NCBI GenBank assembly: GCA_020635235.1
Contig: JACKAF010000003.1
Span: 76,051 to 140,050, forward strand
Direction: 5' to 3'
Length of the DNA: 64,000 bases
Source of the DNA: Pseudobdellovibrionaceae bacterium
GTDB taxonomy: Bacteria > Bdellovibrionota > FAC87 > UBA2466 > JACKAF01
This document shows positions 51,965 to 59,814 of the stretch, piece by piece; the stretch's first letter is position 1; each line of letters begins with the position of its first letter. The position numbers and the translations under genes were made by a program. Below the pieces are notes generated by a model. It made no database searches. It was given only the letters and a program-made list of their open reading frames with translations, and was not told the DNA's origin.

Positions 51965-53053
51965 ATGACCTTTTCAAAACTTGTATTTCTTTCCCTCATT
52001 TTGAGCGTCTCGGCGTATGCCCTCACGCGTGAGCCGGGTCTGGATTTGAGTCTGGAGTTCGAGGGGCGTTGGGTGGAAGAAACATTTCATCGCGCTCAGA
52101 CAGGTGGCCTTGATGTCGGAGCGCAGTTCGATCACAACCTTTCTGACTCCTTAACCGTTTCGATTGATGCCATCGGGCGATTGCAAACGGGTGCCTACGT
52201 TTCCTCGTTTGTGGATGAGTATGGCGCGCAACAGGGTTTGGTTTTACGAGAGGCTTCGATGCGGTGGACGCCCTTCGTGCCGCTTCAGCTGCGTTGGGGC
52301 GTTCTCCCTCACAACACTTTGCCGACCTTGATCCATGACAAGGCCTTTACTGGGGTGGGTGAGCGGCTCAGTCTGGACGCAGGTGCCTGGCGCTTTTCCA
52401 TTGATGCCGAGCAAAGCTTCGCGTCGAGCCCGAGTCGGACTCTATTTCCCACGTTTGCAAATTCGCAGTTTCCAGCCTTCCTGAAGGAGGCGGCCTCTGT
52501 GAACTACTGGTGGCAGGACGGAAGCGCAGGCCTGTATGTCCAGCACTTTGCCTTCTTGAACCTAAGTCGCGAGGTGGAGTACCGCAGCCGGTTCTTCGGA
52601 AACTCCGGTACAGGATCGACTCGCGAGAACGCTTCGCTTTCTTACAATTTCCACGGAATTGCACTTGGGGGTAACTGGGAAGCCCGTTGGGGCAGCCTCC
52701 GGTCAAACTTACAGTTCGATGCGCACCGAAATTTCGATCCGCCCCCTGGAAAAAGGGATGCGTTACTCGGTACCGTGGGCCTCGCTTGGCAGTGGTCTCC
52801 AGCAGTGGTTTCCGGTCTCACTGTCAGTCTGTTTCACATCGAATCCGATGCTGGACCTGGCTTTTATTCCAACAAGTTCTTGGGGCATAACAACCGTCGG
52901 GGATTAGGCGCCTCAGTGTACTTGGATTTCCCGACAACTCCTCTGCGCGTAGAGCTTGGCTATACCAATGCGGAGCCGATCGATGCGAACGCGTTTCAGA
53001 ATCGTTTCCAACAGGCTTTCTTATTATTCGAGACGTCTTATGACTTACTCTAG
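51965..53053 (+). CDS. putative outer-membrane beta-barrel protein
   Basis: Signal peptide MTFSKLVFLSLILSVSAYA and alternating-hydrophobicity strands throughout. The C-terminus is not the canonical aromatic residue. Confidence 0.4.
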   Translation: MTFSKLVFLSLILSVSAYALTREPGLDLSLEFEGRWVEETFHRAQTGGLDVGAQFDHNLSDSLTVSIDAIGRLQTGAYVSSFVDEYGAQQGLVLREASMRWTPFVPLQLRWGVLPHNTLPTLIHDKAFTGVGERLSLDAGAWRFSIDAEQSFASSPSRTLFPTFANSQFPAFLKEAASVNYWWQDGSAGLYVQHFAFLNLSREVEYRSRFFGNSGTGSTRENASLSYNFHGIALGGNWEARWGSLRSNLQFDAHRNFDPPPGKRDALLGTVGLAWQWSPAVVSGLTVSLFHIESDAGPGFYSNKFLGHNNRRGLGASVYLDFPTTPLRVELGYTNAEPIDANAFQNRFQQAFLLFETSYDLL

Positions 53054-55454
53054 GCTTATACAGATTCTTACTTTGGCGGTGGTCTTGTCGGCCTGTACGC
53101 CCGCCAGCAAACAGACACCGGTCCCTCCGGGACGTGCTGCTACCGGCGCTGAGGCGAGTGTTCAGAGCGGACAATACGATCCCTCGCAGGTAGGTTTCTA
53201 TTTTGACGAAGACAAGACCCAGATCCTCAGAAAACCCATTCCCTCGTCCGATAAGCCGGCCTATGAGAGAGAAACTCACCTGGTTTTTCGAATTTGCCTG
53301 AAAAATATTTACGATACGGCTTTGCAGCAGGGAACTTACGAGGTCGCTTTTGAATCGGATCCCTCAAAATTTACCGTCTTAGAGGAGGGCGTGCCCCAGC
53401 GTGACGGTTGTTTCCACACGAGTAAAGAGGTCGTACTCAAGCACAACGTAGATGAAACTGAGAATTACCGCTCCTATTTCTTAGTCGTCCGCGACAAGAA
53501 CGCGCCCGATCGCAAAGTGGCGCTGAAAAAAGATCTGAACGTCTTTCAGGCAGGCAAACTCTTTGAGTGGGATGCCCGCAACGGGGCGCCTGTCGCTGCA
53601 GTACCGACGGGTCCCGTGCTGCGCCTTGGGATCGACAAGCTTTCCTATTTTTATCCCGGACAGAAGGCGGACTACGAAATTGATACCTGGGCCCACCTTA
53701 CCCTTAAGCAGTTTTCCAGATTCCGTTTTACTCCCAAACTGAAAAGGCAGTTGAGCTTTACTTTGCAGGGGCAGCCACAACAGGTTGAGGATAAATTGTG
53801 GCCTGGGATGAAGCTCAATGTGCGCGTCGTCTTTGTAGCGAGTGAAATGAGCCAGTCGGAGCTGGCCACGAAGAAGATAAGCGATAAGCTTGTACACTTG
53901 CGATTTCTGAGCGAGTACGAGACCGAAGCGACGGTAGGGCAGTGGGGTGAGGTCGATATTCCAGTAGGCTTTGCCTACGACTTTAGCGAAGGTCCACTCT
54001 TGGAAACCTTCACGCAGGTGTTTTTGGAAATCCGGTCTGTTGAAAGCCGAGCGGTGGGATCGTTCGTCGGAGTTTTCCCCTTCGCCGCTGTAGATGGAGA
54101 CTCCAAGGAAGTTGGCGTTACTGACATGACAGATGACGATCCAGAGTTGCTTAAGAATTTAGAGCGCGAATTGGTAACGGCAAACGATCGCAGCCTAAAG
54201 GAATTGAAGTTCTCGGAAAAGAAGCTTGCAAGCCTCTTGCCCACCAAAGTTCCGGCCACACACCAGCTGCGCAAACCGCGACGTCCGGAACCGATGGATC
54301 CAGATACGCATCTCAAGTACAGTCCGACCGATTATTTCATCGCGTCCGCTGCTGGGATTCCCAAGAATGTGCTTAACCTTTCCCTTTCCAGCTCGGAGTG
54401 GGAAAAACGTTGGCCCTCTGATTTGAACAAGGATCTTCACCGACTTCTTTCCAACCGCCTTGGGCGCAAAGACCTCTTTTATCCGCTCAATGAAAAAGAC
54501 CTTAAGCCTCTAACCAAACAGGAAGAAGCGCTTCGCCGACAACTTCGATCCCCCCACGGAATCTACCGCGCCTTTGCTCCGCTTGTTGGATATTTTTGTA
54601 GTTATTTTTACGAGGGGGAACAGTCGAAAGCGTGCACCGCCTCGAGAGACAAGACACCCTTTGAGTTCATAGGTATGGAGGTTTTGGAGTTTATTAATGG
54701 CCCTCCGACTGTTGAAAAGAAGTTTGATGAGCTCGACATGTTTCAGGCGATGGCAGAATACTTTCGTGAAGATCTCACTTCGCTGAAGACCTCTGAAGGG
54801 CAGCAGCGCACAACTACAAAGCGTGCTGAGAGCGGGTGGGACGCTTCGCCGAAGTTTTTTGGAATTGGTGGAGGTATGGGGGGCGGCTGGAGCTATAACA
54901 ACGGCCAGTACTGGCACTCGGATTTTGCCCATGTTTTGGATGAGCGCGTTCGGGGGCGTACGCGCCAGTTTGGTCAGCTCTTTGTCCAGATAGCCAAGTT
55001 ATACCTCTCTGCCGACGTCAGCACTTGCTTGCTGGTTTCACCAAAAAAAATGAAGACCCCCAACAAGGGACTGCTCTTTTGTTTTGATCAGCACAAAGAC
55101 GGTATTGAGCACAACTGGTACTACGTCGATCAAGAGCAGCAGTACCGCGGTTTCTTTAGACCCTCGTCGCGCAATCAGGGCGACCGAAAGTGGCTGAAGA
55201 TCATGCGCGGAAAAGAATTCTACGACAGACTCAAGAGGTTGATGAAGGCCCGTGTAGTACTCATTTTGCGCCAATCAGATGGCTCTATCAACGGCGTGGA
55301 TCACATCATCAGCGGGGCCTTGTCCGAGCTCGACCAACTGACTTTTCAGACGCACTCGCTCGGGAAGCATCGGGATTCCGGGATTTATCCGGGAGTTGTT
55401 TTCTATCGAGATGTGGAACGGGTGTACGACGATCTCCTGACGCCGGAGAATTAG
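53040..55454 (+). CDS. large (804 aa) lipoprotein, unknown function
   Basis: ATG 53040 overlaps the barrel gene end by 14 nt. Canonical lipobox LAVVLSAC. No recognisable domain. Confidence 0.6.
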   Translation: MTYSRLIQILTLAVVLSACTPASKQTPVPPGRAATGAEASVQSGQYDPSQVGFYFDEDKTQILRKPIPSSDKPAYERETHLVFRICLKNIYDTALQQGTYEVAFESDPSKFTVLEEGVPQRDGCFHTSKEVVLKHNVDETENYRSYFLVVRDKNAPDRKVALKKDLNVFQAGKLFEWDARNGAPVAAVPTGPVLRLGIDKLSYFYPGQKADYEIDTWAHLTLKQFSRFRFTPKLKRQLSFTLQGQPQQVEDKLWPGMKLNVRVVFVASEMSQSELATKKISDKLVHLRFLSEYETEATVGQWGEVDIPVGFAYDFSEGPLLETFTQVFLEIRSVESRAVGSFVGVFPFAAVDGDSKEVGVTDMTDDDPELLKNLERELVTANDRSLKELKFSEKKLASLLPTKVPATHQLRKPRRPEPMDPDTHLKYSPTDYFIASAAGIPKNVLNLSLSSSEWEKRWPSDLNKDLHRLLSNRLGRKDLFYPLNEKDLKPLTKQEEALRRQLRSPHGIYRAFAPLVGYFCSYFYEGEQSKACTASRDKTPFEFIGMEVLEFINGPPTVEKKFDELDMFQAMAEYFREDLTSLKTSEGQQRTTTKRAESGWDASPKFFGIGGGMGGGWSYNNGQYWHSDFAHVLDERVRGRTRQFGQLFVQIAKLYLSADVSTCLLVSPKKMKTPNKGLLFCFDQHKDGIEHNWYYVDQEQQYRGFFRPSSRNQGDRKWLKIMRGKEFYDRLKRLMKARVVLILRQSDGSINGVDHIISGALSELDQLTFQTHSLGKHRDSGIYPGVVFYRDVERVYDDLLTPEN

Positions 55455-57975: not shown

Positions 57976-58108
57976 GGAATTATTTTAGCATAGCCGCCAG
58001 AATGCCGTTGATCAGGGTAGGAGAAGTTCCACGGATATCCGTGACACGGGATTGAAACTTCGCCCATGACCGGCTATATAGACTCTTTGCTCTGATTATT
58101 GATGCAAT

Positions 58109-58181
58109 GGGCCGCTAGCTCAGTCGGTAGAGCACCTCCCTTTTAAGGAGGGGGCCGTTGGTTCGAGTCCAACGCGGCTCA
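58109..58181 (+). tRNA. tRNA-Lys (anticodon TTT)
   Basis: GGGCCGCTAGCTCAGTCGGTAGAGCACCTCCCTTTTAAGGAGGGGGCCGTTGGTTCGAGTCCAACGCGGCTCA folds as a cloverleaf with anticodon loop CTTTTAA. No encoded CCA. Confidence 0.9.
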
Positions 58182-58272
58182 CTTTAAAGTCTAAGTAGGG
58201 ACTCGTTCCCTTCGGGGTCGAGTCCAACGCGGCTCACTTTAAAGTCTAAGTAGGGACTCGTTCCCTTCGGGG
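58163..58272 (+). repeat. perfect 2 x 55-bp tandem repeat: last 19 nt of tRNA-Lys plus 36-nt trailer
   Basis: 58163-58217 and 58218-58272 are identical (tcgagtccaacgcggctcactttaaagtctaagtagggactcgttcccttcgggg). The unit starts at T-loop position 55. Confidence 0.95.
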
Positions 58273-58386
58273 TACCCAAGTTTCTCTCCCTTAACACATG
58301 TAACCTGCATTTTTGCTCTGGCGTGGTGTCTGCGCTGAAGAGCGTTTTTAATCATAATATAGAGGTCCAAAAAACTAGGGGGCGAT

Positions 58387-59172
58387 ATGCGATTCCTTTC
58401 GGTTGTGATGCTGTTTTTGGCGATTGGCGTTAATGCGCGGGCGGAGCGCGGCTTGGATGCGCTGCGCGGGGAATACCCAATTCTTGAGTATGATGGGGAC
58501 ACCTTAGCTTCTGGGTACGTGCAGATAATCTCCGATGAAAACGTGATCGGCGTGTACGTCAGTGGATTGGCTCTGGCTTCACGGCCAGCCCTCAACCTGA
58601 GCGTTCTTACCCCCTCAGCGAATACCGATGTCTCGGAGGACTCCGATCGGGTTACCCAGCGGTACAGTGATGGCCGCGGTTCTTCAAGAATAGAGTACAC
58701 GCGCCACACGGGTTATCTGGAGATCCAAACAGAAGTCTGCGTCGAAGGTGACGGCTGTGAACGCAATACGATCTTTGCGGGTCAAACCGGCTCTCCGGGG
58801 ACAGAAATCGATTACGATACGTTTTTTCTCGCGACGGCGGGGATGTACAAGATTCAATCGGCCGGCGGGGCACCTCCAAAACCGGAGAATGAAGGGGCCA
58901 TCGTCGACGGGAACTTCGGCTATCTTATGCTTCCCTACTGCGAACCAGGTGGCGCGTGCAATCCGGGATATATTTTTGTCGATCGAGCCTCCACCCGTTT
59001 CTTCCGTCGGGAAGGCACTGCCGGGACTCAGTTGGATATGGTGCTAAGCCAAAACGGAGCCGTTCGTTACTACAGTTGGACGGAGCGAGGGGACGGTGAA
59101 GTTTTGTTTCGGGATTTCCAGTACCGTCTAAACGAAGCCCGCGTCTGCATGGAGCACGTGCTCATCCGCTAG
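58387..59172 (+). CDS. secreted hypothetical protein
   Basis: Signal peptide MRFLSVVMLFLAIGVNARA. No recognisable domain. Confidence 0.55.
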   Translation: MRFLSVVMLFLAIGVNARAERGLDALRGEYPILEYDGDTLASGYVQIISDENVIGVYVSGLALASRPALNLSVLTPSANTDVSEDSDRVTQRYSDGRGSSRIEYTRHTGYLEIQTEVCVEGDGCERNTIFAGQTGSPGTEIDYDTFFLATAGMYKIQSAGGAPPKPENEGAIVDGNFGYLMLPYCEPGGACNPGYIFVDRASTRFFRREGTAGTQLDMVLSQNGAVRYYSWTERGDGEVLFRDFQYRLNEARVCMEHVLIR

Positions 59173-59666: not shown

Positions 59667-59759
59667 GAACGAATCACCGCCCTAAAAACTGGGCGGTAAG
59701 GGATTCGACCGCGAAGCGAACGAATCACCGCCCTAAAAACTGGGCGGTAAGGGATTCGA
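59667..59759 (-). repeat. 2 x 42-bp perfect direct repeat (51-bp period): last 19 nt of tRNA-Arg plus 23-nt trailer
   Basis: 59667-59708 and 59718-59759 are identical (plus strand gaacgaatcaccgccctaaaaactgggcggtaagggattcga), separated by a 9-bp spacer. In tRNA sense the unit starts at T-loop position 55. Confidence 0.95.
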
Positions 59760-59814
59760 ACCCCTGACCCCGTGGTTCGAAGCCACGTGCTCTATCCAAC
59801 TGAGCTAACCGCCC
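59741..59814 (-). tRNA. tRNA-Arg (anticodon TCG)
   Basis: Reverse complement GGGCGGTTAGCTCAGTTGGATAGAGCACGTGGCTTCGAACCACGGGGTCAGGGGTTCGAATCCCTTACCGCCCA has anticodon loop CTTCGAA. No encoded CCA. Confidence 0.9.

Follow-up and report, generated by a model that had tools for sequence, protein, structure and literature searches.

The window, a stretch of 64,000 nucleotides, carries on its forward strand a tRNA-Lys(UUU) gene of 73 nt (58109-58181), which is recognized by ARAGORN (anticodon ttt, 58109-58182) and by Rfam (RF00005, 70 bits), and is the sole credible tRNA-Lys(UUU) gene in the whole-genome list of tRNAs of the assembly. The gene ends at the discriminator nucleotide A73, and the CCA is not encoded. 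Given that the D-loop (8 nt) and the variable loop (5 nt) are of standard length, the canonical numbering is the same as the position in the gene, and nucleotide 58163 is thus T55. A repeat unit of 55 nt, recovered by Tandem Repeats Finder and by a repeat search, begins at this nucleotide (58163-58217, forward strand) and is composed of the tail of the tRNA from T55 to A73 (positions 55-73, 19 nt, 58163-58181) and a trailer of 36 nt (58182-58217). It is followed head to tail, on the same strand, by a second unit (58218-58272), formed by a copy of the tail (58218-58236) and a copy of the trailer (58237-58272), which is 100% identical to the first.

Tandem Repeats Finder describes the segment 58163-58273 as 2.0 copies with a period of 55, 100% matches, no indels, and a score of 222, and a perfect tandem pair of this length cannot have originated by chance. 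The description of the locus in an earlier sequence-only reading, as a tRNA-Lys with a perfect 55-bp tandem repeat that begins at nucleotide 55 of the T-loop, was thus borne out, the gene by ARAGORN and Rfam, and the repeat by Tandem Repeats Finder. At the junction of the two units, the copy of the tail is preceded by a G, where the tRNA itself has T54, and T54 is absent at this point. The repeat unit, at 55 nt, is too short to contain a reading frame of the tpr type.

In the comparisons, the present genome is referred to as G000, while G001 belongs to the same genus, G002 to a sister genus, and G007, from a neighbouring family, served as the control. Upstream of the tRNA-Lys, a promoter-like block read by eye (TTGAAA, a spacer of 17 nt, and TATATA, 58052-58080, forward strand) is near-identical in the alignment with G001. 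The consensus scan made no call here, and the block is a candidate promoter only. The first 9 nt beyond the array, TACCCAAGT (58273-58281, forward strand), are found in the alignment at the position of a probable degenerate copy of the tail in G001. Their interpretation as the remnant of a tail was rejected, given that the resemblance of the 9-mer is not significant. A terminator-like hairpin followed by a T run (58332-58353, forward strand), recorded by the consensus scan at 58332-58345, lies 60 nt past the array, and represents a pattern match only. Further downstream, a protein of 261 aa with a signal-like hydrophobic N-terminus and no Pfam match (58387-59172, forward strand) belongs to a group of only three proteins, including itself, among 5.8 billion clustered proteins, all from Bdellovibrionota MAGs. 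An open reading frame of 832 aa on the same strand (52956-55454) matches no Pfam family at E values of up to 0.001.

The trailer contains two further components, which recur in both units. The first is the heptamer GGACTCG (58199-58205, with a second copy at 58254-58260, forward strand), an anti-T-loop arm detected as an inverted repeat, which is complementary to CGAGTCC at positions 56-62 of the tRNA. The second is a 12-nt linker, TTCCCTTCGGGG, which contains a small GC hairpin (58206-58217, with a second copy at 58261-58272, forward strand). Together with the start of the second tail copy, the arm and the linker make up a junction hairpin (58199-58225, forward strand), the energy of which is -17.6 kcal/mol (z -3.3) when folded as RNA and -10.0 kcal/mol (z -3.5) when folded as DNA. 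The terminal unit, which has no tail copy behind it, lacks this fold (z 0.07). Behind the junction hairpin comes the remainder of the tail copy, rather than a T run, and the hairpin does not have the form of an intrinsic terminator.

The Lys locus is one of many. Tail arrays, in which the 3' part of a tRNA and its own trailer are repeated head to tail, are found behind nine of the 37 tRNA genes of this genome. Seven of these arrays (Ser-GCT, Ser-GGA, Asn, Ala-CGC, Gln-CTG, Lys-UUU, and Arg-UCG) start at T55 and share the same junction design, that is, the arm, a short GC-rich linker, and the copy of the tail, while a larger part of the tRNA is copied in the Leu-TAA and Val-CAC arrays. The arm is complementary to the T-loop of its own tRNA at each locus, and covaries with it across the loci, with GATTCG being found with TTCGAAT, GACTCG with TTCGAGT, GGTTCG with TTCGAAC, and GACTTG with TTCAAGT. 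Over the seven canonical junctions, 84% of the cells of the hairpin pair, compared with 22-43% when the partner is slid, and three of the pairs, two from the arm and one from the inner stem, have changed on both sides. A conserved GTG is found 5' of many of the arms, and is not accounted for by the pairing.

The linkers are not specific to individual loci. The linker TTCCCTTCGGGG is common to the Lys and Ser-GGA arrays of this genome and the Gly-CCC array of G001, whereas TTCGCTTCGCGG is found at Arg, in both species, as well as at Thr, Asn, and Gln. A third type is found at Ala-CGC, and the version of its loop that is specific to G001 is also present at Leu-TAG, a locus which has an array in G001 and none in the present genome. 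The presence of identical linkers of 12-16 nt at non-homologous loci implies that the linker has been copied from place to place, while the arm and the tail are of local origin. The module formed by the arm and the linker was never found away from tRNA genes, and the idea of a free-standing mobile hairpin element was rejected, given that the module occurs only beside the tails of tRNAs.

A companion array is found 1.5 kb from the tRNA-Lys, behind a convergent tRNA-Arg(UCG) gene on the reverse strand (gene 59741-59814, array span 59667-59814, period 51 nt), and an array of the same arrangement is present in G001. Here, on the reverse strand, the arm GTGATTCG and the linker TTCGCTTCGCGG occupy 59709-59728, and the copy of the tail runs downward from 59708. 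The Arg trailer also contains the heptamer GGGCGGT, which is identical to the 5' acceptor strand of the tRNA and is conserved in G001 at six of the seven positions. Judging from the sequence, the extra Arg tail could close an acceptor-like stem of 7 bp with this heptamer. An acceptor-stem mimic upstream of the arm is not a general feature of the arrays, however, being present at Arg and absent at Lys and most other loci.

Two other loci of this genome depart from the common design. The tRNA-Leu(UAA) array (G000:C5:214927-215011 and downstream; L053 in G001) has a unit of 97-98 nt in both species, and its copy starts at the 3' strand of the anticodon stem. The segment GATTTTAAGTCC of its trailer is the exact reverse complement of the stretch of the anticodon stem-loop that ends where the direct copy starts, and is an anticodon-arm analogue of the anti-T-loop arm. 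The tRNA-Ser(UGA) gene (G000:C1:102749-102837 and its trailer) is followed by an arm-containing trailer, GGTGATTCGTTC, with neither linker nor tail copy, while its counterpart in G001 has a degenerate tail copy after just 13 nt, and no arm. These two states may be different products of the decay of one old array.

Across the whole genome, all the long-period tandem arrays with 98-100% identity adjoin the 3' ends of tRNA genes. The remaining long-period arrays have lower identity and periods that are multiples of three. A general tendency of this genome to form minisatellites was rejected, with these other arrays being taken, from their periods and identity, for probable protein repeats.

The stretch that contains the Lys array was recovered from runs of activated sludge and wastewater that belong to at least nine studies. 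The junction between the two units (58217|58218) was found in Logan contigs from three DNA runs, each from a different wastewater or activated-sludge study, and in contigs from one metatranscriptome run. In addition, a contig from an independent NCBI assembly (L061) contains the last 21 nt of one unit, two full units, and the exit from the array. The presence of the junction in independent runs and in L061 excludes an artefact of a single assembly.

The number of units is also not constant. It is at least three in L061 and two in the window, and the last arm has lost 1 nt in an ENA contig (L063). In one run (X2), the k-mer depth is 21.8 inside the unit, 13.6 over the junction, and 7.6-9.1 in the flanks, so that the depth of the unit minus that of the junction equals that of the flanks, as expected for n and n-1 copies. 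The depth ratios give a mean of approximately 2.6 Lys units in X2 and a range of 2.4-3, although these estimates from contig depths are a rough guide, and not true copy numbers. Taken together, the depths of the contigs, L061, and L063 point to an array that varies in copy number between samples. The contigs that bear the gene upstream of the array all stop before it or just inside it.

The metatranscriptome contigs, which come from one run and have a depth of approximately 4, extend over the leader and the tRNA to unit 1 and the junction, and include neither of the flanking genes. This coverage is consistent with the co-transcription of the Lys array with its tRNA.

Tail arrays of this type are restricted to a narrow group of relatives. 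In G001, they are found at eight of the 42 tRNA genes, with approximately five other degenerate cases, and the T55 junction with arm and linker is found at seven loci; some are at tRNAs other than those affected in G000, namely Val-GAC, Thr-CGU, Gly-CCC (five copies), and Leu-TAG. The genome of the sister genus, G002, has arrays at four of its 27 tRNA genes, three with the T55 boundary, and with different linkers. None of the 31 testable tRNAs of the control, G007, has an array, and the only match there is a genuine neighbouring tRNA-Ser gene. No duplicate is present at the tRNA-Lys locus in nine other genomes of the order.

Searches for the motif itself gave a similar picture. Among 40 relatives, the motif of linker and T-loop was found only in G000 and G001, except for one match with a single mismatch, with one match being found in the controls as well. 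A stricter version of the junction motif was recovered from only one other genome, that of G001, among 185,579 species genomes, and had no match in the metagenome contigs of JGI, while protein-guided scans of metagenome and genome contigs revealed no more relatives with the Lys locus. The source records label the organisms as Bdellovibrionota or Bdellovibrionales MAGs. The process is confined to tRNA genes and to members of this lineage, its frequency in other prokaryotes being judged from the one control genome and the one strict motif. In G001, two unrelated tRNA genes, tRNA-Gln-CUG (L043) and tRNA-Leu-AAG (L056), have in common a 34-nt element a few bases past the tRNA, which starts with GGTACCACGTTCCC and ends with CCTGTGGAT, and is distinct from the module of arm and linker.

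The history of the Lys locus can be followed in part through these relatives. The orthologous tRNA-Lys of G001 is identical, its trailer is homologous, and its linker is of the same type. The trailer is followed in G001 by a segment of 22 nt that resembles the tail of the tRNA (14 of 19 positions, with gaps, shuffle p of approximately 0.05), and the downstream region shared by the two genomes joins directly after this segment. The homology of the trailer and the linker implies that the Lys array, or at least its linker, is older than the split of the two species. The same arrangement of genes, from Arg to Lys, is present in G002 without arrays. While the Lys trailers of G000 and G001 differ at 10 of 36 positions, the two units of G000 differ at none of 55, which indicates that the G000 pair results from a recent duplication or from ongoing homogenization. 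This fits the variation in copy number and the decay of the distal copies, which is observed at the Ser-GGA locus of this genome and the Lys locus of G001.

The 55-bp duplication is best interpreted, with about an even chance of being right, as a tandem array of variable copy number, a member of a family-restricted class of hairpin-joined tRNA-tail arrays, seeded by template switching and maintained by slippage, and not as the scar of an integrase att site. At the seeding stage, DNA synthesis through the trailer would switch template at the T-arm, which is prone to forming hairpins and nearly palindromic, and would thus gain a short inverted copy of the T-loop, together with a linker. The source of the linker would probably be a pre-existing array at another tRNA, reached through the homology of the T-loops. 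Synthesis would then restart at T55, and the tail and trailer would be copied again. Units would subsequently be gained and lost, either through slippage during replication or through unequal recombination, which would keep them identical, while the copies at the far end decay. The array would presumably be co-transcribed with the tRNA and removed by the normal maturation of the 3' end, with no function of its own.

This particular pathway, from the switch at the T-arm and the borrowed linker to the restart at T55 and the later slippage or unequal exchange, is put forward tentatively, at somewhat below an even chance. The exact linker cannot be derived from any simple series of template switches, and the T54|T55 join lacks microhomology. 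Simple self-priming or fold-back was rejected as the origin of the junction, given that it predicts an A or AA opposite T55/T54, where the sequence has a T. The two intact Arg modules are identical between the species and the changes in the Ala linker are confined to the loop, which could reflect selection for the hairpin. The covariation of the hairpin would be expected to the same degree from selection and from a templated origin.

Selection is central to the main alternative, itself rather unlikely, in which the hairpin and the mimic of the tRNA tail act as an RNA element in the primary transcript. This element could be a processing or decoy site in the maturation of the 3' end of the tRNA, a protective structure at the 3' end, or a small stable RNA like the rtT of E. 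coli. The stability of the junction hairpin, which is well preserved in intact arrays, together with the pairing that different loci maintain despite changes on both sides, favours this possibility, as does the Arg module that is identical in the two species. The inner loop is often UUCG, a loop type typical of structured RNA. Contigs from the RNA library span the junction, this evidence being derived from a single run of low depth, and the similarly built tyrT repeats of E. coli yield a processed RNA. At least five tRNAs, however, differ in the presence of an array between two species of one genus, the number of units varies, and the distal copies and the whole Lys junction of G001 are decaying, all of which argues against an essential role. 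In addition, there is no T run behind the hairpin and no match in Rfam, and a templated origin alone can yield the covariation.

More broadly, either a dedicated process of this family, whether an enzyme that acts on the folded T-arm or an RNA-templated step, may write the hairpin-linked tails at T55, or the arrays may be kept for the tail-mimic or hairpin RNAs that they encode. Either version would be a fairly improbable outcome, and would imply a new type of site-specific rearrangement of tRNA genes or a new class of small RNA linked to tRNAs. The genomes of G000 and G001 are 79-81% complete, and an enzyme responsible for the arrays could be encoded in the missing sequence.

The sequence-only reading, which noted neither the junction hairpin nor the recurrence across the genome, had suggested the footprint of a tyrosine integrase as an explanation of the duplication, and one feature of an att site is indeed present, given that the direct repeat of the 3' end of the tRNA, a 19-nt tail copy from T55, begins in the T-loop. 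The fixed, non-random position of this boundary, also claimed there, was confirmed by the relatives, with T55 being kept in both G001 and G002, which is contrary to the slippage repeats without a fixed T-loop boundary that this reading had named as evidence against itself. It was also right that nothing is inserted between the copies, the 36 nt there being the trailer of the gene itself, which recurs after the second copy and is homologous to that of G001. Equally, the window has no integrase, and no match to PF00589 is found on its contig. Most of the other defining tests went against an att site. The search of the present genome, which is 79% complete, for PF00589 returned one Xer-sized gene, on contig C1, and the trailer, which the same reading had proposed to look for elsewhere in the genome as an attP, occurs at the Lys locus only. 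The Lys unit had no match in viral contigs, phages, or plasmids. The comparison of relatives that had been suggested revealed a probable degenerate tail copy in G001 and a Lys locus with no array in G002.

Whereas an integrase normally targets a single tRNA gene, nine tRNA genes are involved in G000, and partly different sets in G001 and G002. An att scar was therefore rejected as the main reading of the locus, based on the lack of an insert, an integrase, and an attP, and the many tRNAs affected. A wider version, in which an integrase or another recombinase with a core in the T-arm made the first duplicate, as an att scar or the remnant of a mini-element, and amplified it through the T-loops of sister chromosomes, is distinctly unlikely. 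The left boundary falls at one position of the T-loop in every T55-type array, and T-loops are known crossover sites of integrases (PMC1762012), which favours a recombinase of this kind. A phage-type integrase is also encoded in G001, approximately 4 kb from a tRNA-Met that is followed by a degenerate array. The lack of foreign DNA between the copies tells against it, however, as does the duplication of the trailer together with the tail. The one Xer-sized recombinase of G000 is far from any array, no attP-like match is found in its own genome or in the viral contigs, phages, and plasmids, more than 15 tRNA species are affected, and the distance of 13 nt between the arms is too great for the core site of a recombinase. 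As regards the integrase of G001, it has 415 aa (G001:C13:7050-7574), and the neighbouring tRNA-Met (C13:11654-11726, L038) has a degenerate arm-linker-tail junction in its trailer. A similar integrase is found in G002, approximately 10 kb from a tRNA, and the integrase region of G001 could be a true island that adjoins an array.

The participation of a lineage-specific enzyme that cuts and joins the folded single-stranded DNA of the T-arm, such as an HUH/Y1 (RAYT-like) transposase, a nuclease, or a reverse transcriptase, is very unlikely. The hairpin junctions, with their shared linker and often a GTG 5' of the arm, resemble the small hairpin repeats of such enzymes, and RAYT-like genes are present in G001 and G002, with one of the G001 genes lying beside the 3' end of a tRNA-Val(TAC), at a site that is empty in the syntenic region of G000. 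Against this, no Y1 gene, reverse transcriptase, or Cas1 was detected in the G000 assembly, 32 relatives out of 40 have genes of the Y1 family, although the motif is absent from most of these 32, and the module of arm and linker is confined to tRNA genes. The involvement of a reverse transcriptase or Cas1 in particular was rejected, with neither being detected in G000 or G001. The two RAYT-like Y1 genes of G001 are located at G001:C12:17568-18374 (L129:769-1575) and on G001:C4 (L130:653-1387), with 53-56 bits against the NCBIfam model REP_Tyr_transpos, which is below its cut-off. The C12 gene ends 38 nt from the 3' end of the tRNA-Val(UAC). The genes that flank the two sites are adjacent in G000, and the RAYT-like genes are thus either insertions in G001 or losses in G000.

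An artefact, in which the assembler made the duplicate by collapsing or expanding reads, is vanishingly improbable, for while the source genome is metagenome-assembled and the short contigs of other assemblies break at the Lys repeat, junction k-mers are present in three independent DNA sets and one RNA set, the junction is found in two other assemblies, and the same design recurs at eight other loci, by which this explanation, foreseen as a possible refutation in the sequence-only reading, is effectively refuted.

A tandem array of hairpin-joined tRNA tails, presumably seeded by template switching, can be compared with four known systems. The resemblance to minisatellites or VNTRs lies in the perfect head-to-tail units, the number of units that varies between samples, and the homogenized inner and decayed edge units. 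Ordinary minisatellites, however, have neither a boundary fixed to a position of a functional RNA nor a junction design shared by unrelated loci, both of which are found here. Like the REP and REPIN sequences associated with RAYTs, the arrays contain short intergenic modules that form hairpins, and two genomes of the family, out of the three, contain RAYT-like genes. Unlike those sequences, the module is found only at the tails of tRNAs, once per unit, and is not dispersed, and no RAYT was found in G000.

The duplications produced by tyrosine integrases with T-loop sublocation are also direct repeats of the 3' end of a tRNA, have their 5' boundary in the T-loop, and can accumulate, as in the tandem arrays of att repeats at the ssrA locus of Dehalococcoides (PMC3146451). 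The present arrays differ from these att arrays in that the copies are not separated by an element or its remnant, the trailer of the host is duplicated as well, neither a neighbouring integrase nor an attP is found, numerous tRNAs are involved, and a conserved hairpin linker is found at the junction. The likeness is sufficient for the arrays to mimic att sites, and they will mislead the predictors of genomic islands and prophages, while they also break short-read assemblies at tRNA genes. Two sources of tRNA gene fragments in prokaryotes have been named, the integration of mobile elements and CRISPR spacers (PMC9897764). The Lys locus represents a third, in which a tail is reiterated locally from an anchor point in the T-loop, with a hairpin at the join.

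The closest known case is that of the tyrT/tyrV repeats of E. coli (unit of 178 bp, approximately 3.1 copies, with the rttR/rtT RNA, RF00391, and tpr), for which the classical papers are reportedly those of Egan and Landy (1978), Rossi et al. (1981), and Bosl and Kersten (1991). There, too, head-to-tail units follow the gene immediately, each formed by the last 19 nt of the tRNA, from the T-loop, and the trailer, and the region is described in a preprint as encoding the rtT RNA. In K-12 MG1655, the 19-nt tail of the tRNA recurs three more times at a spacing of 178 nt, with a GC-rich sequence that forms a hairpin before each junction. The present arrays have no similarity in sequence to the tyrT locus, and no homology to the RtT RNA (RF00391) was found at the Lys locus, where cmscan, at E values of up to 1, gives two tRNAs and one chance match. 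The tail copy starts at A58 in E. coli and at T55 here, the unit of 178 bp at one locus contrasts with units of 47-98 bp at approximately a quarter of the tRNA genes, and the abutting anti-T-loop arm, present here, was not seen at the tyrT junction. The searches of the literature found no description of a hairpin-joined construction of tRNA tails, and the arrays are apparently an undescribed, family-restricted variant of tRNA-tail tandem repeats. They provide many parallel and young counterparts of a single old oddity, the tyrT repeats of E. coli, which makes the origin of such repeats amenable to testing.
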